Source: Rhizaria sp. SCN 62-66 (lineage: Eukaryota). Taken from it: a stretch of 64,000 bases of DNA. Shown here piece by piece: positions 1 to 57,961 of the stretch (its first letter is position 1; every line of letters starts with the position of its first letter). The notes beneath the pieces are model-generated. The model was given only the letters and a program-made list of their open reading frames with translations. It had not been told where the DNA came from and did not search any database. The position numbers were made by a program, and so were the translations under genes. Where the stretch lies: NCBI GenBank assembly GCA_001724265.1, contig MEDY01000054.1:1-64000 (forward strand), written 5' to 3'.

Positions 1-1
1 T

Positions 2-3000
2 AGCCGCGGCGCTCAGCGCGAGCGCGAGCGCGGGGTTGCTCTGCAGCAGCCGCTGCCGGTACGCGGCCTTGTCGCGCGCAATGGCGGCCCGGCGCGCGGC
101 GGCCTCGGCGGACGCACGGTGCGCTTGCAGGGCCTGGGCGCGCTGGCGGGCCGAGGCTGTGACGGCGGCGGTGGCGGTGGCGGCGGACAGCGGCGGCAGT
201 GTGGATAGCGCGGGCACCGACAGAGGCTGCAGCGCGGCGGCGGCAGCGGCGGAGGTGGGCGGGGGCGCGGCGCCGGATTGCAGCGGGAGAGCAAGCATGA
301 TACGGCGCTCGCGGGCAGAGGTAGGTGATGCAATGGCGACGACTGCGGTGGCTGAGTCAGCGCCACCACTGGCGACGAGCGCGTGAGACTTGCCCTTGCC
401 GTTGCTGCGGCTCGACACCAGCGCCGTTGACGACACCGTCGCCGCTGCTGGCGCAGTCGCCGTTGTCGCCGGAATCGCGGGCAGAGTGATGTAGAAACTC
501 GTTGAGGGGGACTGCGCCGGTGCGCGCGCGCTGAGGCTGCCGCCGCTCTTGCCAGCATAAGCACCACCGCTAGTGTTCCCGCTGCTGCTGCTGCTGCTGC
601 TGCTGCTCGTGCGAGCACTGTAGCTGCCAGAGCTGCCGCTGCTGTAGGGTTTACTGCCTGGTCGCGCGCCGTCATTACTGGCGTCATTGCTGTTGCTCGC
701 GTAGACCGCGGTGTACGGGTGAGACGTCACGATGACAGTCGCGCTGCCGACGCCCATTGCGCGGACAAGACTGCCCGCGTCCACCGCACCAGGGCCAGCA
801 CTGCTATTGGCGTTAGTGACAGAATCACTGTTTGAAATGACTACGCCGGCGGCAGTCGCAGGAGCATTGTGGGCACTCTTGCGACCAGAAGTGCTTGTTG
901 CAGACGTTTTGCCGTTCTTAGCCGCGGCTGCAGTTGTGGTTGCAGAAGACTCAGTCGCAGGTTTCGCAGGAGTGTCGTTCTTAGTCTTCACATCAAAGCT
1001 CTTGTTGCTGGCAGCTGCCTGCTGCTGCTGAGAGGTTGCTGCACTGGCGGCTGTCGTCGCAGCGATTGCTGCAGGAATCGGGTGTGACTGCATGCGTGAT
1101 TGCGAGAGCGAGTGCAAGCCTTGCTTCCCACCGGCAGTAGCTCCGTTAGACCCTGCACCGCAAACAGTGGCTGCAAACGACAAGGACGACGACGCCCTTC
1201 TCGCGTCACTCTTCGGTCTGGCAGTGAGGCCGCCGCATCGCAGACAGCACACACTGCTGCTGCCCGCGTTGCCGCAGCGCAACAGCAGGAGCGGAAGCTT
1301 GGACTTGCCGTCGCTTGGATGTAAGTACCGGCTAACCCAGTCGAGACTGTCGTAGAGCGCAGTCGTCTCGTACGCGACCAAGTGAAGCAAGTCTTGCTTG
1401 CTGCGAGCGCACTGCGGCGGCGGCGACAGCAGAGCGACGGCACACGCAGCCGCCGCGTTCGTTGCCATTGCGATGGCGGCAGCAGTGGAAGCGGCGCTCT
1501 GGTTTGCGGCGCTGAGTCGCGCGCTTTGCATCCGTGGAGTCACACACATCGCAGGAGTTGCGCTGCGAGCGGCGCTATTAGTGACGCCTCCGTTGCTGGT
1601 AACGTGCGTGATTGCGAGTGCTTGTGATGCAGCGGCGTTGTCAGCCGCGCCGGCGCCACTCGCAGCATCAGCGGCGGCGCTCCCGCCACCGTACGCACCG
1701 TGCGCGCCTCCGTGATGGGCGTTGTGTTCACTGATGCTATCAACGTACCCGGCTTCGACAAGGCGCTCGATCGCGGCCTCAGCGCTGCTGCCAGTCATAG
1801 CTCCGCCCAGAGCAGTGCCGGGCTGCTGCGCATGCGACTGGGTCGGCGACTGCTGCGGCTGCTGCGCGATGACTCCACTCACGCCCGCCGCAGCGCCCGC
1901 GACGACGCGCAGGGTCTTGTGAATGAGACTAACGTCATCGGCTGCAACAGCGAGCGCAACAACAGAGCCCTTCTGGCATTTGCCGCTTGCCGCTGCCGGT
2001 GCGGGCGCAATGAATACAAGAGGCGGCTTAACTTCGGCGATTGTGAGTGCGCCAGTGGGGTCACTCGCGACAACAGTCGTCTTCAGATGCTCCTGCTGCT
2101 GCTCCTGTTGCTGCCGCATTTGCTGTTGTTGTGCGCTGCTTTCTGCCACAGACATCGCTGTGACACCGCCAGCGGAAGAGTCACTGATGTTGCTGCGGCT
2201 ATGCATACCGCCGTTTGCGTCGCGGTTAACAGACATCGCAGTCAGCGTCACCGTATAGCCTGAGGCGGGCGCAAACGGCGACGGCGTAAGATTTCGCGAG
2301 GCGTTAGCGGGCGACGACAGCGGGGAGACAGTCGGCATCAGCGGCAGCAGTAGCGGCGACGGCGGGGCTAAGCCGCGCGGACGGCCCATCGGCGTGGCGC
2401 TGCTGTTTGTGAGAGAGCGGCTGATAGAGCTGCTGGCTGAAGCCACGGCAGAAGCGGCGGCGCGGTACAACAGGCGCGGCGGCAGCAGAGGAACCAGGCG
2501 GGCGATAGTCGCTGTGAGACTCAGCTCACACAGCGCAGCTCCAGGTTCCGCTGTTGCAGTTGCAGTTGCAGTCGCAGTCGACGACGAGTGAGCGCTGATA
2601 TTTGCCGTGGTTGCAATAGCGGGAAACGGGGAGTACGCCGGAGAAATCGACGGCGCAATGACCATCGCGGCCGCTGCAGCCGCTGCAGTCGCGACAGCGC
2701 TGATCGCAGCCGCAGCAGTTGCCGTCGCGGTCGCAGTCACCTCGGCGGCAGAGTTAGCGCCGCCAGAGCCCGTCGCAGCGGTCGCGACAGCGGCGGAGGC
2801 GGCAGCCGCAACCGCTGCGGCGGCGGACGGTACAGGCGGCAGAGCCGCAAGCAAGAGTGTCTCAAAGTCAGGCCGCCCCCACAGCTCGTTCGCTGTGTCA
2901 TCCACAGTGACTGTGTTAGCGGGCGAATCAGTGACCGTGGGCCGCGGAGTGACTGTGGGCAGAAGGGCGAGGATGTGAGAGAGTGCGTGGCGCAGGCCGT

Positions 3001-6000
3001 GCGCTGTGAGGGCCGTCACGTCAACCGCGCTGAGCTCGGCAGCGGCAAACTTTGCAGCTGATTTACTCTCAGTCGCGTCGCCGCTGTTATCATCTTCAAT
3101 ATCGCCGCCACAGTCGTCGTCGTCTTCATCATCACCGTCACCGTAGTCGCTGTCATCGTCGTCGTCGCTGTCCGCGCCGCCGCTGCCATCACTGATCTTC
3201 CGACCACACGCACAGCGGCTGCAGCTGCTCGCCGTGCGGCTGCCACTGATAACATCCGCAACACCAGAGCTTGCGTTGCCGTCAGCGGACATGCGGCCCT
3301 GAGCTCTCTCCGAGAGACTGCAATCACCGTCACCGCTCTTTCTCCCAGAAACGCGCCACTTGCCGGCTTCAAGCGCGACCAACACGGGCGTCGTCAGCGC
3401 GCCGGGCTGCAGCAAGCCCATCCTATGCGCCGCGCCGCCTGCGCCCAAGCCAGCGGCGCTGGCGGCCTTGGCGGCGGGTACGAGCGCCGGGAAGAACGCG
3501 GCGGCGGTGCGCGGCCACTGCGAACCTGCGTTTTCCCACGACGCGCTCACAGTCTCCGGAGTTGTGCTGACGCGGCGCGCGCGCTTGGCGAACACAAGCT
3601 CTCTGCCGCCGGCGTCGCGGCTGCCTACAGCACTCCCGGCAGTGGGACTGGTGGAGTCGTCGCTATCAGCGGCGGCGGCGGACTGCGGGAGAGACGTGGT
3701 GAGCGCAATGTTGTCCCACACAGCGTTGGTAAAGCAGCGTTCTTCGCGGCGCTTCTCAGCCGCTACAGCTTCAGCGGCGGCAGCAGCGGCAGCCTCAGCA
3801 GCGGCGCGAGAGCGTGCAAGCGCGATGGCATCATCAGGGTGTGCCACAGCTAAGGCCGCGGCGTTAGGACTAATACCGCTTGTCGGGGAAGCATCGACGG
3901 CAGCAGCAGAGGCGCTGGCACTCGAGTTAACAGGCGCACTAGCGCTAGAGTTGAGCTGCTGCTGCTCAGGCCACACGAGCCCGCGCAGACACTGCATCGC
4001 CGCCACTGCAATCACCTGCCTGGGCTTCGTCGCAGCGAAGATGTCAACGCCGCCGCAGCCGCCGATGCCAGCGTTGCAGACGAATTGACTTGCGGCAAGG
4101 TTCGCACCAGCTGCGGCAGCAGTGGCATGGCCACGGCAGTGGCTACAGCGGCTGTGGCGGCCATTACTAGCGTTATTGTCGTTTTCCGCAGCGACAACAG
4201 CGGGGTTAGCGGCCGTGCCGGCGCGACCGGCCGCGTTTGCGCCCTTTCTACCGTTAGGACCCGCGGCGGCTTGATTTAGCGACGACGGCGCCCGAGAGCG
4301 CCCGCGCCGCGCGGCCAGCGCCGCTGCCGCCTCAGCCGCAGCGTTCGCCGCGCGCTCAGCCGCGGCCGCCGCCTCCGCAGCAACCGCGGCCCGCTCGCGC
4401 CTCTGCGCGCGCCGTGCTCTGCGTTGCGCTCTGGCGAGCCGACACGCCTCAGCGCGCGCGGCGCCGGCCTGTGCGGCGGCGGTGGCGACAACGTGCTCGA
4501 CGACGGGCAGGACGCAGGCGGAGAAACGGGCCGAGAGGACCGAAAAAAGCTCACTTGCGCGGTCGCGCCCAGCAGCGGCGGCGCGGGACTGTGGAAACAT
4601 TTGCGCATGCGACTGTGACAGTGAGCGCGACTGCGGGTGCGTGCGCGAGTAAGGGTTTGGTTGCGGCATGAACGTTCCCCACTCTGAGAGAGCGTATGTG
4701 TCAGCGGAGACCTTGCACGTAGATGCGGCAGAGCGCTGCTTGTTATTGGCACTATTCGCTGTCGAGTTGTTGCTAACAGCGGCCTGCCCAAGGAAGAAGG
4801 CGACAGCGGCTTCAGCATCTGTCGCAGCCACATTCGCTCCTGTTACAGTCTGCTTCTGATCAGAATCATGATCATGGCTCGCAGAAAGCTCTCTGTTAAG
4901 ACTAGAAAGACTGCCAGCGCTCGCGACATCGTCATCAGCGGTCGCAAGCGCGTGCCTATCAACCGTCATAGCCTCTGCCGCCTTAAGCCTGCTGTAGGCC
5001 CACGCGCGCACTTGTGGGACCGTTGCACGCACGTACAGAGGCCCCTCAGCTGCGCCGGCCTTCCGCCCAATCTGCTGCTGCTGTTGTTGCTGCTGTCCGT
5101 CGCGCTTTGTCGGCGACTGCGATGGTAGCTGCACAGCGCTGTTTTGAGCGTTCTGCTGCTGCTGGTGCTGTTGCTGATGGTGGTGGTGCGGTGGGGTGAT
5201 GCGCGACAGCAGCGGATATCCGCCGTCAATCTCACGTTTCTTGGCGGCAAGCTCTGTGGCTGCAACCGCAGCTTCCGCCGCTGCTTTGGTTTCCTCCAGT
5301 CCGATCACAGCCATCGCCGCCGCGGCCGCCGCCGCCGCGGCCGCCTCCGCCGCCGCAGCGCCGCCGCCAGCCTCAGCTGCCGCGGCCGCTGCGGCCTCCT
5401 TGAGCGCCTTCACGCGCTCGCGCTGCTGGCGGTGCGCGGCGACGGCCTGCAGGCGCAGCTGCTGTTGCTGCTGCCAGCGGTGTTGCGACTGCAGATGCTC
5501 GGCCAGCCTGCCGATGTTGGCGTGCAGAGTCAAGAGTTCGGATGTGAGCGGGGAAGTCACCGTGGGCGCGGGCGGAAACAGAGAGGGGATGAGAGATACG
5601 GCAGATTTGACTGTGTTTGCAATCGCAACGTGTGTGTCTGCCTCGGACACTGCGCTTGACTCACCAGAAGCATTATCCAGCGCAGCTTTGACGTTGGTAT
5701 TTGAGCTCACGCCGTGGTTATCTTTAGGAGTAGATGCGTCAGTTCTTGCTGCTTCAGGCGATATTGTGACTGTGAGCGCGACAGAAGCCGCATCAGAGCG
5801 AGCGCTAACAGTGCTGCTAATATCGAGATGTGCGTCGTCCGTTCCATTATTATTGTCGCCAGTGACCGTGAGGACCATCGTTGGCTGCATCACGACAATG
5901 TCTCCAACACCACCATTCGCAGGCTCAGTCGCAGTCTCAGTCGCAGTCTCCGTTGCAGTTGCAGCCACGGTCTCAGCTGTGGCCTCTGCGGCGGTCTCTG

Positions 6001-9000
6001 GCGGGAGATCAAAGTTAGGCCGCTTGCGTTGATGCGACGTCGGCAGCCGAGGCAGAGACTGCGACGGCACCAGTGAGCGCTGGACAGTCGGCTCAGTCGC
6101 CGAAGTCTCAGTCTCCGCCTCTGTCACCGCGGCTAGGGTGCTCCCTTCGCCATCGTGACGGACACTGCGATTGTTGTTTGCGTCGGTGTGAGAGGCATGT
6201 GCAGTGGGAGGAGATAGGAGGAACGGCGTCGAAAACGAGGGGGGCAACGCAGGGGCAGCCGCGGCCGTCCCAGAAAAAGAACCATGTGCTTCGGTGTTAC
6301 TCGCGTTGCTGCTTGTGGTTGCAACAGGCTCCGCAGCAGGTGTGTGCGTGCTGTTTGCGGTGTCAGCAGTGAATGAGTCAAACTGATCGTCGTTATAGTC
6401 ATCGTCTTCAGGCGCTGCATTGAGACCAGCTCCTACAGCGTCCGCGTCAGCAGAAACAGTATGATCGCTCACCGGCGCAGCCGTCACGAGAGTCGTCGTG
6501 GCATCACTGCTCGGCTCAGGAACAGCGTCCTCGCTTACAAGCTTCGCGTCCGTCGTATTTGCACCAGCTTCAGGCTCTGCATTCACATCCTCGGGCACAG
6601 TGCGAGCTTCAGTCACAGTCTCCGTGTCAGGCGCAGCTGCAGTCACTGCCGCGGCCGTGTTGCTGGCCTCAACCAAAGCCTCAGAAGAAGAAAATTGAGT
6701 CGCCAAGTTGGTTGCAATAGCAGTTTCATTTGACTCAACCGGTACTGGCGCAACATTCGCAAAAGCGCACTGTTCTATAGCAGCAGCAAAATCGTTGTTC
6801 TCAGAGGCCTCAGCCTCAGCCTTGGCATTTATAGCCTCTGCCTCCGCCTTCGCCTTTGCTTCAGCCTCCGCCTTTGCAATAGCCTCGGCGTCCGCCTTGG
6901 CTTTCGCTTCAGCTTCGGCGTCTGCGGTAGCCTTGGCTTTAGCGGCCGCCGCTGCAGCCATCGCGGCCGCTAACGGGCCCGCGGGGGGCACAATGCGCGC
7001 AGTGACGCTCACGTTGGCAGCCGCGGAGGCAGAAACGGGCTCCACAAGCAGCGATTGCGCAGCAGTGCCTGCGGCGCTTTTGTTGTTATGGGAAGAAGCG
7101 AGCGGCAATGACAGGGGCGGGACGTGAGTCTTGTTTACTGTCACTGCACTCGGAGACTGCGGTTGTCGTGAAGTGACCGGAATGGATGCATTGAGACCGG
7201 AACCGCGAACGCTGTCAGCACTCCCGTCAGTGGCTTTGTTCCCTCCTTTGCGTTTGCCTTTGCCGCTCTTCGCAGCCGTCGCGCTTTTAGAAGCGGACGC
7301 GGAGGTATTTACACCGACACCCTTAGACAGCAGCGCCTGGTCCAGTTCCCGCTCCAGTGCAGTCTCCAGGTCGACCGCGCTCTCACCGCCACCGACATCA
7401 CCCGCGCTACTCCGCCTCTGCTGACGCTGCGTGTTCTGCAGTTGCTTCGGGGGTCTGATGCCTTTGACGCCACTGCCAGTCCCCGCAGCCGCCAGCGCAG
7501 CCTGCAGCGTCACCGGCGCAGCGGCCACCGCATGCGCAGACGGCAGCGCGGTGAGCTTCGACAGCGCGGCCGCGGCCACGGCTGCAGAGCAAGTCCGACC
7601 GGCGCCTGTCGCCGCAGCAGCGGCGGCGGCGTGCGAGGAAGCGGCGCTGGCGGTAGCGAGCGCGAGCGTGGCCGCGGGCAGAGGCGCTGCGGCGACGGCG
7701 CTGGCGCGGGTCCGCGTGCTCTAAGCACCAGTACCAACTGTACCGACACTCGAGTTACTAATGCTGCTGCTTGCGGTTCCGATGGCATTCTTGTTCGTCG
7801 TCACAACGCCTTTGATGTTGTTTGTCTTTACATTTGTGTTTGTGGTGGGGGTAAGGGCTGCGGCAAGCTTAGTCACGGCCATCGCGCCCGCGTACGATGA
7901 CGGCAGCTGTGGCTCAACGTGGTGGTAAGGCAGATGCTCATCAGTCCCCGCTTCTTTCCTATGGAGTCCCGCTTCAAGCGCGAGCGACGCGCGCAGAGCT
8001 GCGTCGGTGGCACTGGCGAGTACGTGTGGGTCCAGTGGTCCCGCAGCGGCGACAGCCGCGTTGATGAGCTCCGCGCCGTGCAAAGACGGACGCCGCCGCC
8101 TCCGCTGCTGCTGCTGCTGTTGCAGGACGTTATCGTAGTTACTGTCATCGCTGTCGTCGTCACTGCCAGCATCGTCACCGCTTTTCCCGCTGCCTTGGCC
8201 CTTGCTTTTGCCTTGCTTCTGCTTCTGTGCTGCGGCGACAGCCTTGGTGGCCTCAGCCTTTTCCTTCTCAAGCTGCTTGCGCCGCTGCTCTTGCTCCCAA
8301 AGCCGTTTGGCTTTCGCGGCCGACACGGGCGGCGGCGGCGGCGGCGGCGTCGGCGGCCGCGGCGGCACCGGTTTCGGCCGTTGCGCCGGCGTGTACATCG
8401 CGGTCGGCACCGACGAATCCGCCGTGATGAGCGGGCTGCGGTGCCGCTGCAGTGTGCCAGCCACGCCGGGCACTTTGATCACCGCCGCGCGGGCCGTCGC
8501 GCGATCCTACGCGGCCTTGGCGCGCGATTCGACCACGAATGCGGGTAAATGCATGGACTCTTCTTGTCGGGCCGCCTGGGCCTGGGCGCGCGCGCTGTCG
8601 GCCGCCACAGAGGCGGCGAGCGCGGGGGAACGCAGCAGCGGGCGGCGCGCCGGTAGTAGCAACGGTGACCGCGAAGCAGCCGCAGGCGTCGTCTCTATCA
8701 TTGTCGTCTTCATCGCAGTGCGTTTACATGTGGAGCCTGATGCCGAGGATGAAGATGAGTCTGTGACAGTCTCGGCGCCGCGGCTGCCAGACGCAGCGGA
8801 CTGCGGCTGTGGAAGCGGCAGCGCCAGCGGCGGCGGTTGCGACTGCGATGTTAAGGCGGAGGGACCGTCGGTAGTCACACGCGAGTACGCATCGCGGAAA
8901 ACGGCCGACATTGAAGGCGGCGGAGACGCAGCGCGGGAAGGCGGGGACGGCGTCAGCGGCGACATGGCGCGACTGGCGCGCGCATCATCACCGTCGGAAG

Positions 9001-9169
9001 AGGACGCAGAAGGTGAGAGCGGCACCAGAGGCACGCGGCGCGCGTGCGGGCCGGCCGCGGAGGGCGGGGGCGGCTGCAGTGGCGCCGAGGGGGGCGAGAG
9101 GAGGGAGCGGGACGGGGGCGCCGAGGATGCGGCGCTGGGAGGCCCGTGCGCCGCAGGGGCGTAGGACAT
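2..9169 (-). CDS. Giant low-complexity (Ala/Ser/Thr/Pro-rich) hypothetical protein, >=3,056 codons, 3' end beyond the window; two in-frame TAG codons (8507-8509, 7721-7723)
   Basis: ATG at 9169 (MSYAPAAHGPP). Track ORFs 8507..9280 and 7721..8482 share one frame and are separated only by a TAG. The same frame continues past the second TAG, and no stop-terminated ORF is listed in it down to the window edge (spot checks also found no stop). Contains poly-Pro and a charged AKAEAEA helix (~6790-6960). No recognisable domain. Confidence 0.8.
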
Positions 9170-15800: not shown

Positions 15801-18800
15801 GAGTGTGGCGGTCATCACCCACTCAGCCGGGCTCTTCTTGCCCGCAGCTGCGGCGATCGCCGCGGAGTCGGCAGCGGCACCAGCAGCGGCGGCGGCAGGA
15901 GGTAGACCTAGGCCCTGGACGAGTGCTAGCAGAGCGTGGAGACACAGCGTCGCTTCGGCGCGGGCCCGCAAACGCACCGCACTGACACTCTCCACTGAGC
16001 TCCCAGTCACAGCCACCGCCGCGGTCTCAGTTGCAGTTGCTGAGGACGTGACGGGCGTCGGGAGCGCGAGACAACAGCGTGCGGCGGCAAGCGCGAGTCG
16101 CCACGGGGCCCAGCCGGCCGCCGCTGTGGCCGCGGCACGCACGCCCGGAGCGCAGAACACCGGCGTCGGCAGCAGTGCGGGGGCGGCGGCGTGCGCGGCC
16201 GCTGCGGGAAGCAGTGGCCCGCCGCCAGTCATACTTGCACTCGCAGGGGCTGCGGCGACGTGGGCGCGCGCGAGAGAAGGGGAGACTGTGAGCAAACGAG
16301 CGCTGTGGCGCAGTAGCGACTGCGAAGGGTCGCCTACAATGGCGCTCGCACTGTCAGCGTTGTCGCTACTCCTAGTGGTGCAGATGAGGGTGGCGAGAGC
16401 GGCCAGAGTCGACGGCGCGCTTTGCATGCTGCTGCCACCGCTGTACAGGGAGCGTGAAAAACGCGGCATCAGCGCGATCGCAGCCGTGGCAACGCGCATC
16501 GTCCACTGTAAGCTGTGGAACACACGCACTGCAGCAGCAGACGTTGGCGATGATACAGTCGAATCTGCGCCGTCACTGTCAGCCTCCGCTACGGTTGTAG
16601 CCTTCTTGCCACGGCCTGTCTTGGCGGCGGCGGGCTTACCAGTCCGCGACTGCGACTGTGTCACAGCGGAACCGGAGTCTGACTGAGGAAGCTGCGTGTG
16701 CGCAGTAGCTGTAGCGCACCCGTCTGAGAGGTACTTAGACGCCGTGAACGCACTTAGAGTCGGTGCAATACACTGGCCCGCGCACGCAAGCGTCGCTGCC
16801 ACTGTTCCAAGCGCCCCCGTGCCCGAGTTTGAATCGGAAACAAACGCGTTTGTCGAGTCATTGCTGCTATAAGGGGCAGCAGCGCGTGCCTCCGCAAGCG
16901 AAGTGAGCACAGGCAACAACAAGAGCGCCGAGGGGCACCGCGACGGGTCGAGACTGACCGGCAACGGCACTGCAGCAGCGGCAGCGTCGCAGTCGCTGTT
17001 ATAGAGCGACGCGGGGCCCGCGACGGAGGCGGCGGCGGCGTCAACAGCGCGGGGCACCCATGACTGGGAGCACGGCACTGCAGGCAGCACTGGGGCCAGT
17101 AACGACTCCAGCACAGACGAGTCACCGCTAGCAGAGCCAGGGCTAGAGCTAGAGTTTGAGCTCGAGTTCGAGTTAGAACCGAGGGTATTGCTGTGACCGT
17201 TGCTGTGGATAGAACAGGAGCAAGGAGGGATAAGGCCCGCGCGCACCCACAACGCAGCGTCGTGACTGCTCAAAATCGCACTACAGGCGCTCACATCTTC
17301 CTCATCACTTTCCGTGTCTAAGCGGTTACAATTGCTTTGAGACAGTGAGTCTGAGTCCCAGGCCTTTTTGACGTGCCCACGCCAACACCCGGCGCTGCCC
17401 ACGCACGCCGCCTCAGCGCCCACCGCGGCTGCCACGGCCACAGCGCTCTCGACGCTCCGCGGCAGCACCGCAACAGTCGCCGTCGAGGGACCGTGAGCAC
17501 CACCGGTTCCGTGGGTGCCCGCGGTGTGGGTGACCGTGAGCACGTCGACCGCGTGCACAGTGTGCGCAGCCACAGCCACGCCAGCGGAGAATGCGCGCGC
17601 GAGCAACGTCAACACAGCGGTTTCAAGCCCGCGGAGCCCGAGTGAGCGCAGCCGGTCGGCGAGAGCCGTCAGAGCGGCGTATGCGTCATTCGCCAGTGAA
17701 AGCAGGGTCGGCAGCGCGGCAGCGGCAACAGTGGCCTTCCTAGGGCCACTTTGGCTGTGATCAGCCGCAGCAGCAGCTGTGGAGTTGTTGTTTGTGTTGG
17801 TATACATGAAACAGGCAGGCACCATGTACACCGTATCTTTACCCACACGGGCATCGTTCTTGTTGTTGCCGTGAGCGGATGTCGCAGCAGTGGCGTTGGT
17901 GTTGACGGCAGGGGCCCACGCCAGCGCGGCACGCAACCGGGGGTCGCCGAGCACGCGCTGCCACAGCGCCAGCGCGGCGGGCGCGCCGCGGGCCGTGTTG
18001 GCCGCCAGCGCAGTCGCTACCGCATCCGCCGTCGCGGCCGCAGCCGCCAGGGCAGCGCTGAGCGGGGGCGCAGAGGCCGCAGCAGAATTAACAACGACAG
18101 CGGATTCACTATCGCCGTCATCCTCGTCGTCGTCTTCAGAAGCGTCGTCGTCGGCATCAGTAGCTTCATCGTGAGCTTCGTTAGTATTGTTTACGACGGG
18201 GATATGGCGCGAGGCGTCGTCAGCGCTGTGCAACAACGCGCGCGTCGCCACAGTCGCTGCCTGCGCCAGCAGAACAAGCGACGCCAGCGACGGCAAAGCC
18301 CCGCCATCATTACCACTGTTCGCATCATTCGCTTTAGACGTGTTCGCAGTGCTCGAGGCGGAGGCAGCGAGGGTTTGGTACGTGCCGACAGCTTCGGCGA
18401 GCAATGGCGCGCCTGCAGCGGGGTCGGCGGCCGCAGCGCCCCTGCCTGCGGCTTCCAGCGCTTTTGCTTTGTGAACCAAGCACGCGCGCGCCTTAGCGGT
18501 GTCCTTAACAGCAGTGAACACAGCTGCAGCGTTGGCGAATGAGGCGGCAGCGTCCTTGAAGCGACGTTTGCCGTGGAAGTAGACGGCGACGGCGTGGTAC
18601 GCGCGCGCAACAAGCGGAAACCCGGCCGCGGGGCTGGTGGTGGCGAGCGCGTCAGGCGTGAGAGCGGTGAGCAAGGAAACGCACTGGGGGAGCATGGCCG
18701 AGTCTGAGGCATCGAGACTTGCGGTCGGGATAGAAGTCAAGTGCGTGTGCAGCGAGCTGAGCACGGAGCGGGCCTTGACCGCGCTGCGCTCAAGCGCAGC

Positions 18801-18818
18801 GGATGCGGCGGCGGACAT
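9877..18818 (-). CDS. ESP1: Separase (peptidase C50), ~2,899 aa; exons 18818-10744, 10626-10352, 10226-9877
   Basis: Spliced translation shows the C50 motifs in order: WWTTRFEIE...FFGPWAGVL, LTTLPFESLPVL, VARMPTL, YYILNPGSDLPKTQ, YCGHNGGEQY (catalytic His), LMGCSSG (catalytic Cys), VVGNLWEVTDRDLD, CKLPYLNGAALVVWGLP. Two GTACGT...CAG introns restore the frame. Ends in TAA. Confidence 0.95.
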
Positions 18819-19500
18819 TGCGGAGGTCGCTGGGAGAGGCAGACAGGCACGGAGCAATACCGGTTTATGTGTGTTGGTGGAGAGGCTGGGGCAGAGCCGT
18901 TGAGGGACACAAGTGCAGGGACTGGAGTATGTAGCAAGTGTTACTCAGGAATACTTTGCAAAATGTCTATGAAAGTGTTAAATACAAACGCATTTCGTAA
19001 TGTTGAGGCGTGTTGATATGATGACATGTCGGGAGAGCGAGGTCGGAAGCGAAGCCAGGGACAGGTGCGCAGAGCCGTGGGGTGCTAGTATTGTATGAGC
19101 TGCTGAGGACCGCAGCCAAGGGCTTAAGATGCAGAAATTAAATTAGAAAAACAAAACTAAATATGACATCGACAGGCCACTATTATATAGCTATACACGG
19201 AGGTTTGGCGCTCCATTACACGGTAAAGCTCTGGCCCGCCCGAAGAGCTGTTGGCCGTCGAACCGTGGTCGCCGACCCAAATACAGGGGTGATTTCGAGC
19301 AAGTCCAGCGACAAATTCTGATCGTTAATGCTGATTTAGCTTACATTTCCACCTATCATCTCGCCTCACCTATTTTATTGTATTTGTCACACTCTGTTTC
19401 ACTGAAGGCATCAGCTACTACAGACCACACAGTGCACCGAGACTTCATCCACCGTAATACTCTTGGCGCTTCTCTCCGCTCCCAGGGCTGTCGCACCACC

Positions 19501-20328
19501 ATGGACGCGATCACCCAACTACAGATGTACACCTTCACCTTGTCCTAGATAATTGCGACTGTGATCTCGTTCATTCACACCAACGGCCGTCTCACCCCTG
19601 CACAGGCGCGCGCCATCGACCACCTCGTCATCACAACCGCCGCCAACACTTCCGCAAACAACAGCGCCAACAACACCAGCAGCGCGAGCACCGCGTCGAC
19701 GGGCCCTGTGCTGGTGACGGCCAAGGGCACGCGCATTCCTCCGCTGACCAGGGAAGGCGTGGAACCCTTTCTCAACTTCACACGTCACCTCACCGAGCTT
19801 TGCGCCCACTACACTGAGCATTCCCGCGAAATCGCCGCTCTCGCCGCCGCGCTGCCCGACACGCTCCCCACGGAGGCGGTCACGATCGAGCTGCTGGCCG
19901 AGGCCAAGCGCGACGGCGCACGCGCGGTGGCGCGGCTGCGGCGCGCTGAGAAACGCGCGCAGTACTACCAAGAGAAGCTGAGGCAGGCGACCGCGACTGT
20001 GGCCGATGTGATGCTTGGAGTACCTACGACTGCGCATGCCGCGGCGGAACCTGTGGGGGTACCCGTGGGTGCCCACGGTCAGTTGGACGCCACGGGGGCG
20101 GAGAAGTGGGCGCAGCGGCACCGGAAGCGGCTGGCGGCGGGTGATGACAGCGTTGCTGACTATACACGCATCAAAAGCACGAGCAACCAACACACCAGCA
20201 ACACTAATAAGAACACAAACAACACGTCTATCAGCATCATCAACGGCAAGGATAGTGAGAACGCGAGCAATGACGCGAACACGGGTGTCGCCAGTGCAAT
20301 GACAGGGCAGCAGGGCATGTCTGACTAA
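19501..20328 (+). CDS. MED21: Mediator complex subunit 21 (Srb7), 275 aa, with an in-frame TAG at codon 16 (19546-19548)
   Basis: Begins MDAITQLQ (family signature MxDxLTQLQ). Later EIAALAAALPD resembles DIDVLIDSLP and is followed by a coiled coil. ATG 19501 is in frame with track ORF 19561..20328 across a single TAG. Ends in TAA. Confidence 0.85.
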
Positions 20329-20676
20329 CTTTGTTTCTGTTTGGTGACTGATAACTGTGACTGCAAAAAAAAAGAACTCGGCTAGATTAGAGATCTCGGC
20401 TAATGCTTTTTAGTTAACACAGTCAGAGGATGTCAGTATCACACCGGCTCAGTTAAAGCGTCCGAGATAACATTTACATAGTTATTTTTATATACATTTT
20501 TTGTACTACTCCATTCACGCCGAATTTTCCGTTGGGCAACAGGACAATAAACACTGGTTTATTCACTGAGTGTTATTTGGCCTCAAATGTTTCAGAATGA
20601 CATCAAAGCCACAACAAAAGCCATTAAATAGAGTAAATATCACTATATATGCGTCGATTTTCCACTTTGAAGTGTT

Positions 20677-21475
20677 TCACCACTCTCGTTGCGGCTTGCG
20701 AGACTCCTTCCGCTCTTTCTGCCTCTGTTTCTCAGCTTTATTGCGTGCGTCAGACGCGGCCTTGAGGCGGCTTACTTTCTCTTTCTGCTCTGCTGAAGTC
20801 TCTTTGGGCACCACACAGGCCTCCTGGATAGCCGCGTAGAGCTTGGACACGCACTCATTGAGGTTCTGGCTCTGCACGCGGTGGTCGTCGGCGGTCAAAA
20901 CAACCTCAACACCGTTCGATCCAGAGTTGCCTGAGCCGTTCTGAGTAAGATAACGGCGGAAACCAGGGTTCGCACGCAGCCTGTCCTTCACCACAGCCGG
21001 GAGCCAGCCCGCGGAGTTGAGCGCAAAGCGTAACTCGGCCTTGGAGTTGGTTTTGTTGACGTGTTGGCCGCCGGGGCCGCTGGAGCGAACGAACGAGCGC
21101 TCAAAAGAAGAAACGGGGATGTCAGCGAGCTTGAACGACTGCGCCCACTTCTCGATGTCGCGGAATTGCTCTGTCAACAAAGTGGGGCAAAACGTAATGC
21201 CATAGCGAATTGGTTGTGAGTTGGATATCTAGCGTTACATGTGTTGTTTTAGTGACCTGATGCAAGACAGGAGTAAACGTACCTTCCTCTTCTCGGGAGA
21301 AGCGTGAGAACCGAGATAGAAGTGTGAGTGTCACAGCTGGCAGCGCGGGGCCCACAACTAGCAGCGGTGTGTTAAGACAGGGCTGTGGAGATGAGGGAGA
21401 ACATGGGAGGACACGGGCGACGGCGGCAGGGAAGGTTGCCGTTGACGCACCAAGAGCCCTGCGGAGCCTGAGCAT
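20677..21475 (-). CDS. ICT1: ICT1/ArfB(YaeJ)-type codon-independent peptidyl-tRNA hydrolase (RF-1 GGQ domain), probably mitochondrial, 228 aa; exons 21475-21283, 21170-20677
   Basis: SFVRSSGPGGQHVNKTNSKAELRF, RVQSQNLNECVSKL, basic C-terminal tail and an Arg-rich presequence-like N-terminus. 112-nt GTACGT...CAG intron. Ends in TGA. Confidence 0.92.
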
Positions 21476-21943
21476 GGGACAGGTCTGCGGAGGGGGAAGA
21501 CAGAGAGTTTACAGAATGATAATAAGGGAGATGAAGACATCCAATCAATTAAACTCCGAAGCAAGACATTATTTGCTTATTGGCGATGCGTGTCGTGTTA
21601 ATCAAATGGTTCCTTGTGAGCACGTTCTTGAAGCCTTGATGACTGGCGCGCGTAAGGCAACTTGTGGTGAGCACAACTAGAGCCGATTAAGCCATGAAGT
21701 ATGCACAATTGTGAGTGAATTGAAGCATATTTCGATATAAGAACTTGCGTTCTATATTTTTTCTTTTTATGGCGCTATTGGTCTGGATCTCTTTCTTCTA
21801 TGGACATGAGACGATACTCTAGTCCCTCTCAAGACCAGCTTCCTGTCGTCACCTTAAACGAAGGCTCAAAGCCCTTGTTCTCGGAACGCAACAATTATTA
21901 TTAACCGACTAGACAACGAAAATCTTTCTAAGTAACCGATAGT

Positions 21944-21961
21944 ATCGGCTTATATCCTAAA
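21944..21961 (+). promoter_or_regulatory. Candidate TATA-like core promoter motif ATCGGCTTATATCCTAAA upstream of the Ariadne gene
   Basis: 16/18 match to 51503-51520. The two copies lie 156 and 158 nt before an ATG. Confidence 0.4.
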
Positions 21962-22099
21962 ATCGCGCAATCTGTGTCTTCATTTTCGCCCTGTCCTCCC
22001 CACAGCCCACCCAACTCACCCACAACAAGCAAGCCCTCCGCTTCGCCTCGTCCAGCACACCCAGTTTCCCCCACGCGCCCGCCCCACCGTCTGCCCGCG

Positions 22100-25000
22100 A
22101 TGTCCACCGACGCGGGCTACTCATCCGGCTCTGCCCCGATGACGGACGAGCCGTGTCTGTGGTGCAGCTCCGCCGGCTGTGAAACCTGCGACTACACAGG
22201 CTTCGCTTCCTCATCCTCGTCTTCGTCTGCCGTTGTGACTGGCGCTGGTGGGTACCACTCCCCCGCCGCGGCCGCTGACGGCGATGACTTCGGCGCATAC
22301 CAGGCCTCCGACGGCTTCTGCAACAGCAGCATCGGCGGCAACGGCAACGGCGACGGGAGTGGGAGTGTCGCCGCAGCAGCTGATGATCCGTGCATGTGGT
22401 GCAATGGTGCCGGTTGCGAGGCCTGCCAGCCCGCCGTCTCCGCCCCCGCCCCCGTAGCCGGATCCTCCCTGCGCTCCCCGGCGCGCTCCATCCACGGTTC
22501 TCCGGCCCTTGCCCCCGCCCGCCCCCCCGGCTCCCCCGCGCTTGTCGGCATCGAGGCTGACTTCGCCGCCGCCGCCGCCGCCTCTGCTGCCGGCGTCGTC
22601 GCGAAGCCATCCGCGCTCGCCGTCGCCGCCGCCTGCACCTGCGGCGCCTCTGCGGCCGCACTCGAGGCAGCGGTGGCGCGCCGTGAACGCCGCTTTGGCG
22701 GATATAACTGGCATCCTGAGCGGCCCTACCGCGCCGCTGACGACTCTGATTCAGACGACGACTGCAACAACATTATTAGTGACGATGACGACAGCGGCGC
22801 CCTTGACATGGAAGACGGCTGCGCTAGTCATAGCCTCGCGCGTAGCAATGGCAAGCGCCGCCGCCGGTCCCGCGGTGTCGCGACGGCTTCCTCCTCGCCC
22901 AACGGCTCCGGCTCGAGCTCCAGCAGCGCCAGCGCCAGCGCCAGCGCCAGTGCGTTTGCGTTCGACAACACCGCGTACTACGACGACGAGGACGAAGAGG
23001 CGAATCAAAACGCCTTTTTGGTGAACAGTGCTGAGTGTTTCCGTGATGACGACTCTGTGGCCGAGGAGGATCGCGACACCACCAGTCAAAGCACCACAAA
23101 TGACGGTGTTAGTCAGTGGCCGTATGACGGACTGCGGCTCAACGACATCGCTCATGACAAGCGCTGTGCGAGTTACGCTTACCTCCACCCTTCCAGCAGC
23201 AGCAGCCACGACAGCACTAGCGACGTTGACGACGATGATGATGATGCGGCCAGCGTCAGTGTTGGTCGCGTCGCTCGCGCCGCTGCGTCCCGCACCGCCG
23301 CATCATCAGCTGCTGCGTCTGCGAGCGAAGCCAAGAGCAACAGTCTCTCAACCTCAACCAATGGCTGCGGCGGTGGCAGCGGGAGCAACAACAACACGAT
23401 GACGTTCGCGGCCCCGGCGCCGTTGACTCTCGGCGTCTCTCTCAATCTCTTTGACGCCCAAGGCAAAAACGCAGCCGCTGCTGCTGCCAAGTCGGCCCCT
23501 GTCGCGCCTGCTGCGGCGACCGTGTCTATCTCGGCGCTGGCAGCCGCCTTTGCCCCGCCCCCGCCGTTCCACAACGTTACCACCCATGGCCTCGTCGCCC
23601 CCGGCTCCCGCCCCCGCTCCCGGGACCCGGCCTCTGTGGCGGCCCTCACCCGCCGCGCAGCCGAGTCTCTGTCCACGGTTCTCTGCACAACGGTCGATGA
23701 CGCGGATGTGCTGCTGCGGCGTTATGACTGGGACGCGCCGCGGTTGATGCGCGACTGGGTGGAGCGTGATCCGGACACTGTGCGCGCCACGACCAACACG
23801 GCGGACCCGCGGGACCGTGAGAAGAAGGAAGTTGTATGGTCGCGGGATACCGACGCCGCGGGCAAAGAGAAAGAGCTGGTCATTTGCTGTGTACCTTACT
23901 GCGACGCGGTTCCGAAAAAAGCCACCGAGCAGCTCGCCTGCGGACATGCGATGTGTACGGAGCATTGGCAGAGCTTCATCGACAGTGAGATGCGCAATCA
24001 GGGCCCCGGCGCGGTGCTGACCACATGTCCCGGGTACACGTGTGAAGCCAAGGACTGCATGCACCGCGGCAAGCTGTGCAAGTGCAAACAGCTCGTGCCG
24101 CAGTATGTGTTCCGGAAGTACCTCAAGAGGGCGCAGAAGGCTGCGGACGCTGAGCGCAGGCGGCGCGCAGTGAAGGCGATGGAGAAGCGCACACAACAGC
24201 AGAGTGATGCGAGCAACAATGACGACAATAAGAGCCCGAGCCGCGCGAGCGAGAACACTTCCGCCGCCGATAAGAATAAGAACCGTGCATCTGCTGCTGC
24301 GGGCGATGCTGTGGTCGATGACAGCGACTTGCTTTTCTCAGACGCTGTGGCGCGGTATGATAAGTATATCTCGCGCTCTGTGGCGAAGTCGTCTCCTGCG
24401 CACACGCTGTGCAGTAACCCAGAGTGTGAGTGCCTGATTGAGCGCCACGCGGAGTCCTCGCTCGCCATCCATAAGGTACGGCTTATATTTGATCAAATAC
24501 CATTTGAGATGTCTGCGCTCTTTTATGGGGTTTTGTTTTGTTTTGTTTTGTTTTGTTTGATTTCTCATTCATACGTCTTGCTTTTGTTGCATAATCTTTG
24601 CTTTTGACGTCTTCGTTGCTCCAGTGCGATTGCGGTACTCTGTCATGCTTGCAATGCGGCTACGCTGGCGGCCACGTGCCATGCCCGTGTGATTTAGCTA
24701 AGATCTTCCTCACACAGACCGACTCTGACGCCGCCAGTCTCCGGTACGTTCGCAAATCAAGCTAAAACTACAATACTTCTGTATTCTTCATTTTCCTGAA
24801 GGAAGGTTCTCTCTTATCACTATTTCATTTTTTTGTAACCTCACATATTCCCTCTCAAATTGTTTCGTCATTGTCACTTGCAGTCTGATTGAGGCGACAA
24901 CGAAGCGTTGCCCCAAGTGCGAGACAGCCATCAGCAAAGACAAATATTGCAACCACATGCAATGCACCCAGTGTAAGTTCCACTTCTGCTGGCTCTGCAA

Positions 25001-51660: not shown

Positions 51661-54600
51661 ATGTCGGACGGATTTTCGACTACATCGTCGCTTGGGGCTG
51701 GCTTGTTTGACGCTGATCTTGCTCGCTGGCGCTCTGGCGGCACCGGTCTTCCCACCGCCTCCGTACGGTCTGCCACAACGCCGCCCTCACCAGCGACACC
51801 TGGCAGCGTTGCCGCAGCTGCTGTCGACTTCATTTCCCCATCGCAGGTCCCGATTACAGTCACCAGCAGCAGCCCTCACTGGACACACCACATTGCCCTC
51901 GCAGTCCCGTTCTCACCCGCCCCGGCGGCTGGAGCCCTCTTCTCGTCTCCAGGCGCTGCCTCCGCTGTCTCCGCTGCTTCCGCATACAGCGATGACCCCT
52001 CAGTGCACTCCCTCGTCTCTGCTACGCCTTCGGCCACGTCTTCTGCGGCAGCGCCGGCTCCCGCGCGCTATGAGGAGTGCCTTTCGTTTCCCAACAGCAG
52101 CAGCCGCGCCAGGCTCGCCGTCCCTCCAGGCGCCCTCTCTTCGACCACCATCTCAACGGCAAGCCACACTGCGAGTCCGCCGCCAGCCCCGGTCGCTGCG
52201 CTGCAGTCGGCGCCGCCCGTTTCTGCTGCGTTGCTGGCGCACGCGCTGACGCCCTCTAAGGCTGGGACCGCGAGCGACGCGATCGCTGCCATGTACGCCC
52301 GCATCGCAGCTGCTGCTGCTTCGGCGACGGCGAACAGTGCTACTGCGCGCGCCGCTGAGGGCTCAGGCTCAGGGTCGGGGTCGGTCACGGGGGGATCAAA
52401 CTCTGCCGCGAGCTCTAGTATCGGCTCGCGCGTTGTATCTCCAGCGGTGTATGCGGCGTCCGCAGTGCCCGATGCAGCTGTTAACGCACCCGCTGCGACT
52501 GCAACTGTGCCTTCTGTCTCCGTCCAAGCTCCAGTTGCAGCACCTGCGTCCGCATCGGCATCAGTGTCGTCCGCCTCGTCGTTTCATTCGCCGACGCAGT
52601 TGCAGCCACAGCTGCAGGCTCTGTTTCGGCTTTCTACTGCTGCTGCAGCTGCGCCGACTGTGAGCCGAGGCGAGAGTGCTGATGCGCCGTTGTCGCTCCC
52701 AAAGTTCCAGTTTCAGTCGCAAGCACCACCGCAGCAGCAGCAGCCGCAGCAGCATCAACAGCCCCCGGTGCAATCGCAGTCTCAGTCGCCGACGCACGCG
52801 CAGCCGTCTCACTTGCGCTCGCTGTCGCAGCCTCGGCTGCCCTTCGTTGCATCTGCCTCCATCAAGCAACAGGAACAGGACTTGACGCCGTCGCCGCAAG
52901 AGACTGCGACTGGTGCGGGCAGTGACACGTTGCAGCTCCATCTGCGCACTGCGCCAGTGTTGCCTGCGGCAGTGTCCGAAGCGCTGAACGCGACCTACGA
53001 TCACAGCTTCGCTCACAGTCATGCTCACAGTCACTCACCGTCGACTGAGACGGCGGCGGTCGGCTCGACACAGAGCCACTTCGACAATCACGAGCTCATG
53101 GCAACGACCCGCACTGGATTTGCTCACCACGCTTACACTCATAGCGACGAGGCCGCCGCTCCTTGTGCTGCTGTTGATAACGTTAAAGCCAATTCTAGTG
53201 CCGTGCGGGCAGATCTCCATGAGACTGGGTTCGCGGCTTCTGCGACTGGTTTCCAGACCAACGTGCAGCCGCGACTGCTCACGGTCACTTCCCTGCTTAA
53301 CACATACGGCCCACCCACCGCTGCGGCACATCTACCGCAGAATAACAATGTTTCGCAAACGACCTCGTCGTCGTCTTTGTCCGAATCATCAGCGTCGTCT
53401 TTGTCGTCTCTGGCACCGCTCTCGGACTCCGCATCTGCAGCCTCTGACTCTGGCCCTGCCGCAGCGCTGGTGGCACCGCTGACGTCGGCATCAGCGACAC
53501 TTGCCGAGGCCTATTGTCTTAGTGCAACGAGCCGCTCTGCCACGTCAAACAATATCACGCAAACCAGCGTTGCACCTGGCATGAACCGTAGTTTGGCCCA
53601 CTTACATGTGCACAATGACAATATCGCGAACAACCATCACTCGGTTGGCGCGGCGTACACCCCTGGCTTTCCTTCGCTCCCTGACTCAGTTGCTGATTCC
53701 GCTCTTCTTGCGGCCGCTGCGTAGCCGCAGCCGCAATCGCGATCACAACAGAGACTGGGCTCCGCGGCCGCGGCGGCTGGGTTTGCGCGCAGCGTGTTTG
53801 TCCCACTTACGGCTTCCGCGTCTGCGCTCCTGAGTGCGGCCGACGAAGCCCTTGAGCGCGCGCTCTTCCATGGTCTCTACGCGATCACCGACGACGACAA
53901 CAACAACGCCAACGAGCACGGGGTTGACGACGACGTGGACGATGACGGCGGCTACACTGACGTCGCCGACGCCGCCGATCTTGCGTCGTCTTACCCTCTC
54001 GTCGCGGCGACCTCGGCTGCGGACATGGCTGCTGCCCTGCGCCAAAGCGCGCTCGCGGCCCGCAGCCACCTGCGCTCTCTGTCGCGCGCGCACCGCCGCC
54101 GCGCACTGGCCGCCGCGCGCGCATGGCTGGACACGACTGCCCGCGCCGCGCTTGAGAACGAGCGCGCGCGCGCCGCCAACGCGCTCACCGCCGCGCTGGC
54201 CGCCGCGGAGGCGACCGCGCGCGAACAGACACGCGCACAGTGCAGCGAGGTCGTCGCAGCATGGGACGCGCACGGTGCGGCAGCGCGTGGGCAGTTGGTC
54301 GCGGACTGGGCGCGGCGCGGGCCGGAGCTGCTCGCCGCGACGACCGAGGCGAAACGCGCGGAGTGGACGCAGCGGCTCGCGCAGCTCGACGACGCGCTCC
54401 GTAGCGAAGCCACGGCCGCTGTGGCCCGTGCCAGCGCCGAGGCAGAGGCCGAGGGCGAGGCGCGCGCGCTGGCGCTGCGGACCGAGTGGGCGCGGGACTG
54501 TGAGCAGGCCACCGCGGCCGTGCGCGCTGAGGCGGAGGCCAAGACGGAGCGGTATGCGGCCGAGCTTGCCGAGGCGCTGGGCGCGCATGCGACGGCGGCG

Positions 54601-56028
54601 CGGGAGCGCGCGGCGACCGCTGCGGAGGCCGAGGGCGCGCGCCTGCTGGCCGAGGCTGAGGCGGCTGCGCGTGAGGAGACCGCCGCGGCGGCCGCGATCG
54701 TCCGCGCCGACGCTGCCACGCGTTTTGCAGCCGCCGCGCGCGCTCTGGAGGAGCACGCTGCGAGCGAGCGCTTGGCCGCGCGCGCTGCCGCCGCTGCGGA
54801 GGCCGCTGCTGAGGGCCAGGAGCAGCTGCGACAGCGTCTAGTCGTGCTGCGCGCGCGCGCCGATCGTGACCGCGCCGCGGCGGCCGAGGCTGCGGCGGAC
54901 GCGGCCCGCGCTGCGGCAGCGCGGGCGCAGGCCGAGGAGGAGCAGCAGCTGCAAGACGCGCTGGAGGCTGAGGCGGCGCGCGCGCGGGGCGAAGTCGAGC
55001 GCGACACGGCCGCTGAACTGGCGCGGATGCGGCTTAGCTTTAAAGCGCGGCTGGAGGAGGCCGGGCGCGCGGCGGAGGCGGCGGCGCGCGCACAGGCGCA
55101 GCGGGCGCTGAACAGTGAGCGCGCGCGGCAGGAGCTGGCGTTGTGTCAGCACGTTGCTGCACGCAAGGCGGCTGCAAGCGCGGCCGTCGTGAAAGAGCAG
55201 GAGCAGGCTGCCGCGCTCAGGGCAAGTGTTGGCGCGCATGCTAATCGCGTGAATGCAAGTTCTGTGGGCACTTGTGGTTGCGGCTGTGAGGCGACTGCTG
55301 TGCAGACGCAGAATGCTGGTCCGCAGTTACAACAGCGTTGCGCGTAGTCGCAGCCGCCACATCCTCAGTCTGTGTAGCATTGCGCAACGTTAAATGCACA
55401 TTGCTACGGTCACGCTCACAATCATCACCAGCAGGTGCACCAGCAACAGCAGCAGTCCTGCCAGCAGCAGCAACACTCATGCCCTCAGCACCACACGCCG
55501 TCCTGGTGCACTCAGCAGCAGCCGCATCAGCACCAACACTGCCACTCGCAATCTCAGCAGCCACACCCGCAAGCTCAGTATCAGCAGCGTAGCATCTAGT
55601 GTTCTCATTCACGTCAGCAACAGCAGCTGCCGCAAACTCTGCAGACTGCAATCGCCGATAGCGCAGAATGCATGCGCCCGAACTACCCGACGCAGTCTCC
55701 CGTCGCTGTCGCAATAGCCGCGGCGGCTGCAGCAGCTGCCGCCGAGGCAACTGCCAATGCGATCGGTATCTTGCCCACAGGCATCCCGTCCCGCTTCGAG
55801 ACTGTGTATCCGCGCGTCGTCACCAGCCTGACTGCCGCCGTGACTGTAGCCAACGCCGCCAACGCAGCGACGAACAGTCGCTCTGCGAGGACTGAAGTGG
55901 TATCGAAACCGACTGTGGCAATGTCAAACAACGCAGTGAGTGGTGTGAACGAGGATGATGACGACATGTATGTTGCTTTTTCGCTCCGTGGCGCGCCTTC
56001 GTTGACCAGTAGAGTGGTGATGTACTGA
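51661..56028 (+). CDS. Hypothetical protein, ~1,455 aa: Ser/Ala/Pro-rich N-terminus, Ala/Glu/Arg coiled coil, Gln/His/Cys-rich tail; four in-frame TAG (53722, 55345, 55375, 55597)
   Basis: Track ORFs 51661..53724, 53794..55347 and 55672..56028 are all in one frame. Hand translation of the gaps shows only TAG interruptions. Ends in TGA; a GTATGT near 55968 could be an unrecognised last intron. Confidence 0.78.
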
Positions 56029-56522
56029 CGTATGCGCATTTTTATCAGTTTCACAAGTCGAAATCGAGTGATACATAGCATTGTTTTCAAGACTTCGTTT
56101 TCAAAGCAAAGGGATACAGGGAGTTAATGAAACGATTCGTACCCGCATGTACGTACGTATTTAGTATGCAACGAACATGACTAAAGTGCCCCAACATGGA
56201 CTAAATACATCGAATATAAGTAGTCTAATCGTAGTAACTTTATTTTCTTTATACGCAAACAATGTCGATGTCGAAGTCAAAACACATGACTGACCGTCAG
56301 TTTGCAGATTCAACCCAGTCGATTGTTGTGGTACCAGCACTAAGGCGTGTGGACATGCACGCTGCGACCGTAGCCATGCATGAGGGACAACATCCGGAAA
56401 AGTAATATTCTGCCATCAACACACGCAATCATCCACACCGCCTCTTCACTGCTTACTTGGCCAGAGGTTGGATTAATAGAAGGGAGGCTCCATCTATAGA
56501 TAGATCCAGTTGCGCGATGTGT

Positions 56523-57659: not shown

Positions 57660-57961
57660 CGTGACTTGGTTCGGCGTTACACTCAGCAGATCCGTCAGAT
57701 TTCATCGTCGAAAGCAAGCCCTTCGTCACTGCCAAACGGGCAGCCCAAACCCCAGCGATCCACCACCGCAGACTGGCAGCCGGCCCACAGTCACCCAAGC
57801 TCGACAGATTCGGGCTTTTCCACGGTCTCTAACTCAACAAGACACGCATGGACTTGAGTTATTATTGTGTATAAATAGACTAGATAAAACATTAAATTAC
57901 AAAAACTACGTAAAATTGGCACATGTGATCATATCCCATCGAGTCCGGCTGCAGCGAGCGT

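Follow-up and report, generated by a model that had tools for sequence, protein, structure and literature searches.

A nuclear genetic code that gives a sense meaning to UAG alone is described, in the sources cited here, for only a handful of protists (PMC5304391, PMC11687900). In Iotanema spirale, UAG is reported to specify Gln and to make up ∼8% of Gln codons, with termination left to UAA and UGA (Panek et al. 2017, PMC5304391). The same report describes the rhizarian exLh (Sainouroidea), in which UAG specifies Leu: 384 in-frame UAGs were counted in 71 transcripts, termini were UAA or UGA only, and UAG was frequent in genes for the proteasome but seldom found in those for ribosomal proteins (PMC5304391). 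Phyllopharyngean ciliates are reported to translate UAG as Leu or Gln, to prefer UAA as a stop and to carry identifiable suppressor tRNA genes (McGowan et al. 2024, PMC11687900). In Amoeboaphelidium protococcarum, UAG and UAA are both given as sense codons, with UAR specifying Gln (PMC5304391, PMC6299283). Here, we analyse a stretch of 64,000 nucleotides (the window) from contig MEDY01000054.1 of assembly GCA_001724265.1, deposited as Rhizaria sp. SCN 62-66. It carries a predicted homologue of MED21 (Srb7), a core Mediator subunit, whose reading frame is crossed by an in-frame TAG at codon 16. We consider it fairly probable that UAG is translated in the host, where UAA and UGA remain stops.

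The proposed code has likenesses to each of these systems. As in Iotanema spirale, UAG alone would be reassigned, UAA and UGA would still terminate translation, and UAG would be a minority codon; the Gln reported for that species would also suit both the polar position in MED21 and the Gln-rich surroundings of TAGs in a second gene, g51. The differences are that the host of the window is very GC-rich and comes from wastewater reactors, and that its UAGs are far rarer (7 TAGs in ∼17,000 codons, or 7 against 543 CAG plus CAA in the genes counted). With exLh it would share a UAG-only reassignment, UAA and UGA termini and marked differences in UAG use between groups of genes, and the uneven use reported for exLh is a precedent for the uneven use seen here. 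Leu is, however, unlikely at the MED21 site, and the window holds only 7 UAGs, in three genes. The ciliate codes are alike in that UAG alone is reassigned and UAA is a stop, and they too were found by mining metagenome and genome data. The window, with its 60-75% GC, frames of thousands of codons and 117-125-nt GTACGT introns, is presumably unlike ciliate genomes. Amoeboaphelidium protococcarum offers a further stop-to-sense change in a microbial eukaryote that is not a ciliate. Its type of code does not fit, because TAA terminates genes in the window: at least three genes end on TAA, with a drop in GC after each.

The MED21 frame opens at ATG 19501 in a strong start context (ACC ATG G) and runs through 15 sense codons to the TAG at 19546-19548, beyond which it continues uninterrupted to TAA 20326-20328. 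There is no ATG in the 172 bases 5′ of this start, the nearest lying at 19328, and the next in-frame ATG beyond the TAG is at 20011 (codon 171). A codon-usage score, for which three other genes of the window served as training set and a fourth as validation, was positive in the MED21 frame only, at 0.58 on the 5′ side of the TAG and 0.32 and 0.28 on the 3′ side. It was negative outside the gene (−0.09 before the ATG and −0.27 after the TAA).

The 275-residue read-through product (P0001) matches the Pfam family Med21 (PF11221) over residues 1-168 and profile positions 1-143 of 144 (E 7.9e-7), so that the alignment to this profile proposed in an earlier, sequence-only reading of the DNA yields a full-length match. 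A search of 5.8 billion proteins with P0001 returned two matches: its own 255-aa open reading frame (ORF) and P0003. The latter is a 190-aa protein that itself carries PF11221, is 42% identical, aligns without gaps from Met1 across the TAG and has Asp at the TAG codon. Residues 1-15, which precede the TAG, are identical to P0003 at 10 of 15 positions compared with 42% for the entire protein, which places the collinearity beyond chance. A profile search of 1.84 billion representatives gave eight matches at E ≤0.001, four of them full-length relatives with 24-28% identity and the same Met. The alignment used below comprises six sequences, namely P0001, P0003 and these four relatives; P0006 and P0010 match over internal stretches only and were left out. 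All five relatives share the start Met of P0001, and the N-terminal motif M-D-x-[IL]-[TS]-Q-[LI]-Q has M1, D2, Q6 and Q8 invariant in all six sequences, with human MED21 aligning from residue 3. In the TAG column the five relatives have D, Q, K, K and S. The human protein has Asp there by profile alignment, as the sequence-only reading had stated, and its further claim that the position is polar holds for all six relatives compared.

Searched against the Protein Data Bank (PDB), the profile built from the six sequences gave 19 matches, of which the top eight are MED21/Srb7 chains, among them human 7emf_U (E 2e-6), yeast 1yke_B (6e-4), 5n9j_D (3e-3) and 6xp5_U (0.029). A single-sequence phmmer search of PDB sequences returned no MED21, only Beclin-2 at E 3.3. 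The AlphaFold2 model of P0001 (mean pLDDT 63.8) has helices at residues 3-28, 33-52, 84-117 and 125-172, and residue 16 lies in the first of them. The earlier claim that the TAG falls inside the conserved N-terminal helix of MED21 is thus borne out by the profile and homologue alignments and by the model. Compared with known MED21/Srb7 (7emf_U, 1yke_B, PF11221), the product shares a full-length profile match, the N-terminal motif, three long helices and a conserved C-terminal helix. It differs in its length (275 aa versus about 140), in an Asn/Ser/Thr-rich insert past helix 2 and a 100-residue low-complexity tail, in the TAG itself and in a Pfam score that falls under the gathering cut-off. 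Judged from these alignments, the gene is a MED21 homologue with the TAG within its conserved first helix.

The TAG is real DNA and is seen in several samples. A metagenome contig of 3770 nt (L001) corresponds to positions 18673-22442 of the window, TAG included, with its sole mismatch at 21189. The codon is bridged in three studies, dated 2017 (run X3), 2023 (X6) and 2025 (X5), of which that of 2017 may be the source of the DNA; its letters are confirmed at least partly for X3 and X6 only. The X3 contig, possibly from the source sample, is identical to the window across 18673-20245, including the TAG. In X6, a separate study, a 263-nt contig bridges the TAG with two differences. One is at 19431; for the other, the change tally of the run leaves C>A, C>T, G>A and G>T as the sole options, so that the T and the A of the TAG are unchanged. 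In X5, a polyA metatranscriptome, an 804-nt contig (19388-20191) bridges the TAG gaplessly with six differences, two of which are listed. The protein collection records the 255-aa ORF that begins after the TAG on 1 + 6 contigs, and a 275-aa form was not found in it.

Six further TAGs interrupt two other genes, g9 and g51. In g9 they lie at 8507-8509 (codon 221) and 7721-7723 (codon 483), and its 3056 codons contain no TAA and no TGA; the other two frames of the same strand contain 57 and 166 stops. The g9 ATG is preceded by an AT-rich stretch, its frame has the best codon usage of all six in every segment, and at least 2573 codons stay open beyond the second TAG, where the first Met comes ∼260 codons on. 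In g51 the TAGs are at 53722, 55345, 55375 and 55597, again with neither TAA nor TGA in 1455 codons and with 20 and 50 stops in the other two frames of the strand; GC drops, from 0.52 to 0.39, only past the terminal TGA. The TAG at 53722 runs on into CCG CAG CCG CAA and looks like the CAG of a Gln-Pro repeat, and Gln/His-rich sequence surrounds three of the g51 TAGs. MED21, g9 and g51 together hold seven TAGs, no TAA and no TGA in 4786 codons, a count of frame continuity rather than of homology. GC is 0.49-0.80 on either side of every TAG compared with 0.30-0.48 after the true stops that were scored. Given at least 0.019 out-of-frame stops per codon, hand arithmetic puts the chance of 520 stop-free codons at p <1e-4. 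An X5 contig bridges the g9 TAG at 7721-7723 with two differences, one of them unlisted, so its letters are not fully confirmed; the TAG at 8507-8509 is not covered by any listed contig. The listed strain differences in g9 are five synonymous to four non-synonymous (4:3 beyond the second TAG), those in separase 9:8, a weak hint that the g9 region after the TAGs may still be under selection.

Under the standard code, these observations would require an inactive MED21 with no second copy visible, together with three g9 frames that happen to abut in register across single TAGs without an AT-rich spacer and a like arrangement in g51, and for this reason UAG as a sense codon is favoured. The MED21 gene would then be intact: the ribosome would start at ATG 19501, insert a residue at codon 16 and end at TAA 20326. 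Decoding may involve two components: (i) a CUA-anticodon tRNA, or a near-cognate one, that reads the codon; (ii) a release factor that has lost efficient recognition of UAG. The inserted residue is probably polar. Our best guess is Gln, with Glu or Lys as alternatives, because the relatives have polar residues at the MED21 site and other TAGs stand in Gln-rich contexts. Since UAG is rare and is unevenly used across genes, the reassignment could be young or still inefficient.

Several results weigh against this reading. The placed gene ends (three TAA, four TGA and none of seven TAG) are a small sample. The TAGs are unevenly spread: three genes have 7 in 4786 codons, whereas the 12,294 codons of RICTOR, separase, the RBR ligase, g58 and g62 contain none (Fisher p 1.4e-4). 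Such unevenness is not expected of a neutral synonym, and dead genes would cluster stops in the same manner. Under a plain nonsense-mutation model, TAG makes up 60-66% of the new stops expected, and seven TAGs out of seven then have a p of only 0.03-0.06. Homology backs one of the seven TAGs only, that of MED21, and the other six are supported by frame continuity and composition: g9 and g51, the low-complexity carriers of these six, have no Pfam match, and a search across the g51 TAG at 53722 (P0004 residues 540-900) found no homologue at E ≤0.001 among 8000 candidates, the g9 sites not having been searched. For MED21 itself, the PF11221 match scores 29.9 bits, short of the gathering cut-off (37.3), so that Pfam would not annotate P0001, and a Foldseek search of the model against the PDB ranks MED21 chains 1, 3, 4, 6 and 7, yet the best E is 0.39 and none is ≤0.001. 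That the X5 letters at the MED21 TAG are unchanged is inferred, four of the six differences in the bridging contig being unlisted. Another X5 contig (10312-10678) retains, around separase exon 2, parts of both flanking introns, and spliced joints at known introns are absent among the 15 X5 joints listed. Because of the retained introns, X5 may hold DNA or unspliced RNA, and its contig across the MED21 TAG cannot be counted as mRNA. Finally, a tRNA scan of the window found no genes, and thus no CUA-anticodon tRNA in these 64 kb, and no eRF1 gene lies within the window.

A codon-usage scan of the flanks of all stops, which flagged 8 TAG, 6 TGA and 2 TAA, was not used because antisense frames of Ala-rich genes score as coding.

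The alternative that survives best, although we judge it unlikely, is a dual or leaky UAG. The code would formally be standard or ambiguous, and partial suppression would let TAG be tolerated in MED21, g9 and g51 at the cost of less full-length protein. This would accommodate both the rarity of TAG and its strongly uneven use between genes, and in exLh, too, genes for ribosomal proteins are described as avoiding UAG, which seems to be translated less efficiently (PMC5304391). In g51, however, four TAGs in succession would leave almost no full-length product unless suppression were efficient, and no gene end placed in the window is a TAG. Stop-codon read-through in plant viruses can be stimulated by a following context of the CAR-YYA type. 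Here, the hexamers at +1 to +6 differ between all seven TAGs, CAR-YYA matches none of them, and no known read-through context is common to them.

Somewhat less likely again is a standard code in which the TAGs arose by nonsense mutation, leaving MED21, g9 and g51 as recent pseudogenes or truncated alleles. The concentration of stops in three genes is what such decay would produce, nonsense mutation of codons as CAG-rich and GC-rich as these most often gives TAG, and the TAG at 53722, within a CAG-CCG repeat, has the look of a C-to-T change of CAG. Decay would nonetheless have had to spare the 4786 codons any frameshift, TAA or TGA in spite of indel-prone repeats, and to leave open the long frame past the last g9 TAG. 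The MED21 TAG recurs in runs of three studies, with its letters partly confirmed in two, and the proportion of synonymous changes after the g9 TAGs is similar to that in separase. A second intact MED21 copy, which the sequence-only reading had considered, was found neither in the 5.8 nor in the 1.84 billion proteins, which include gene calls from assemblies containing the host. It is also implausible that 3 of ∼11 genes within 64 kb should be dead.

We regard it as very improbable that translation begins past the TAG, by re-initiation or at a non-AUG codon, so that ATG to TAG forms a 15-codon upstream ORF and MED21 lacks its first 16 to 20 residues. Prokaryotic gene callers did choose GTG 19561 as the start (P0002). 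The 15 codons before the TAG are, however, the best-conserved part of the gene relative to P0003, and the N-terminal motif of all relatives and of human MED21 lies within them. The strong context of ATG 19501 and the lack of any in-frame ATG until codon 171 argue likewise for the upstream start, and a late start would leave the TAGs of g9 and g51 unexplained.

Removal or alteration of the TAG in the mRNA, whether through a tiny intron or through A-to-I editing that turns UAG into UGG, is a slight chance at most. Editing of this kind occurs in some filamentous fungi. Introns do exist here and two of their 3′ ends read TAG, which is why removal was considered. The introns of the host start with GTACGT, are AT-rich and end in YAG. 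Two were sized base by base: the first separase intron, from 10743 down to 10627 on the minus strand (117 nt), and that of RICTOR (125 nt). The second separase intron starts at 10351, a g58 intron runs from ∼58851 down to 58679, and an in-frame TAA at 10707 in separase is intronic. No GTACGT-type intron lies near the MED21 TAG, where the sole GT..AG pair spans 22 nt (19527-19548). As the sequence-only reading had stated, removing this piece creates ATA TAA, which we confirmed on the sequence: the frame shifts directly onto a stop. On this ground, and because MED21 aligns collinearly with its relatives, we rejected a tiny intron with its 3′ end at the TAG. GT-initial pieces of 22-23 nt can be drawn at four of the seven TAGs, and these were rejected as well, their lengths having been chosen post hoc. 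Against editing, the aligned residues (D, Q, K, K, S and, in human, D) are never Trp, and the sole A>G change tallied in X5 is at 19431 and not at 19547, though X5 may hold DNA. A sequencing or assembly error in the window has a negligible probability, given the same TAG in L001, the identical X3 contig, the unchanged T and A in X6 and the post-TAG gene calls on seven contigs.

With UAG as a sense codon thus preferred, its setting may be considered. Genes in the window are 60-75% GC and intergenic DNA is 49-54%, and some open frames are very long. The host appears to be a GC-rich, intron-poor eukaryote of wastewater and bioreactor metagenomes, from a lineage that looks unsampled. Its DNA recurs in contigs from activated sludge and microbial fuel cells (runs X4, X5 and X6), in two studies besides the possible source. 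Relatives are scarce among the 5.8 billion proteins: the best are 41-42% identical and the next 28%. A single relative accounts for the best matches of both MED21 and the neighbouring RBR ubiquitin ligase, the next match of the ligase being the one at 28%. In the ESM Atlas, the ligase is placed no more closely than Eukaryota. In that relative, P0003 (MED21) and P0013 (the 41%-identical ligase homologue) lie together on one 7354-nt contig, and the MED21-RBR neighbourhood is therefore syntenic. This contig did not turn up in our scan of metagenome contigs, where 153 pattern matches resolved to one locus, L001.

The features placed in the window are collected in the table. Among the neighbours of MED21, separase has its catalytic YCGH..GGEQY stretch in exon 2. 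The GGQ-motif ORF, judged by eye, resembles a release-factor domain protein of the ICT1 / peptidyl-tRNA hydrolase type, probably mitochondrial, and not eRF1. Pfam matches of the RBR ligase are weak and under curated cut-offs (UBA_ARI1 E 0.012; IBR E 0.00026 and 0.024). The RICTOR_N match (E 1.8e-32) covers residues 1307-1460, and the rest of that product is mostly Ala-rich low complexity. In-frame TAG is absent from the exon-like ORFs of the NEK-like kinase and the TMED-like gene. An Rfam scan of the window at gathering thresholds gave no matches, and no MED7 gene lies within the window.

Table. Features placed in the 64,000-nt window, with the stop codon at the gene end and its position where assigned
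Feature	Position	Strand	Stop at gene end	Remarks
g9, function unknown	1..9169	-		ATG 9169-9167; runs past the window start; at least 3056 codons; 2 TAG
Separase	9877-18818	-	TAA 9877	Peptidase_C50 E 4.4e-24; two short AT-rich GTACGT introns near the 3′ end
MED21 homologue (predicted)	19501..20328	+	TAA 20326-20328	275 codons with one in-frame TAG; no intron
In-frame TAG, MED21 codon 16	19546..19548	+		N-terminal helix
GGQ-motif ORF (SGPGGQH)	20677-21234	-	TGA 20677	By eye, from the translation only
ARIH1-like RBR ubiquitin ligase	21974-26300	+	TGA 26298	At least two exons
RICTOR-like gene	27557-51102	+	TAA 51100	∼7800 codons; two giant ORFs joined in phase by a 125-nt intron (39035-39159)
g51, function unknown	51661..56028	+	TGA 56026-56028	Ala/Gln-rich, coiled-coil-like; 1455 codons; 4 TAG
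p24/GOLD-like (TMED) gene	56300-57700	-		By eye, from the translation
g58			TGA 57962	
NEK-like protein kinase	61067-64000	+		Several short introns; by eye, from the translation

UAG-only reassignment is already known in a few protists, and the present locus would add one more case, in a seemingly unsampled lineage. In the main texts of the literature searched, no report of UAG reassignment in a GC-rich wastewater eukaryote was found. A bolder version of this reading, which we put forward tentatively and hold to be rather doubtful, is that a deep-branching, GC-rich eukaryote of wastewater reactors reassigned UAG independently and is still at an early or ambiguous stage, in which the codon is rare and confined to a subset of genes that includes a core Mediator subunit. 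If so, the host would offer a natural intermediate of stop-codon reassignment, and it would do so in a GC-rich genome, where mutation pressure is not expected to remove TAG.

There are practical consequences for how this organism is represented in databases. Gene callers split or truncate host genes, as with MED21, which is stored as a 255-aa fragment starting past the TAG, and the public proteome of the host is probably wrong wherever TAG occurs. Beyond annotation, each new UAG-only case is a test of how reassignment starts and of whether UAG and UAA can differ in meaning. If true, the present case would give a view of an early stage of reassignment in an uncultured, very GC-rich lineage with almost no sequenced relatives.

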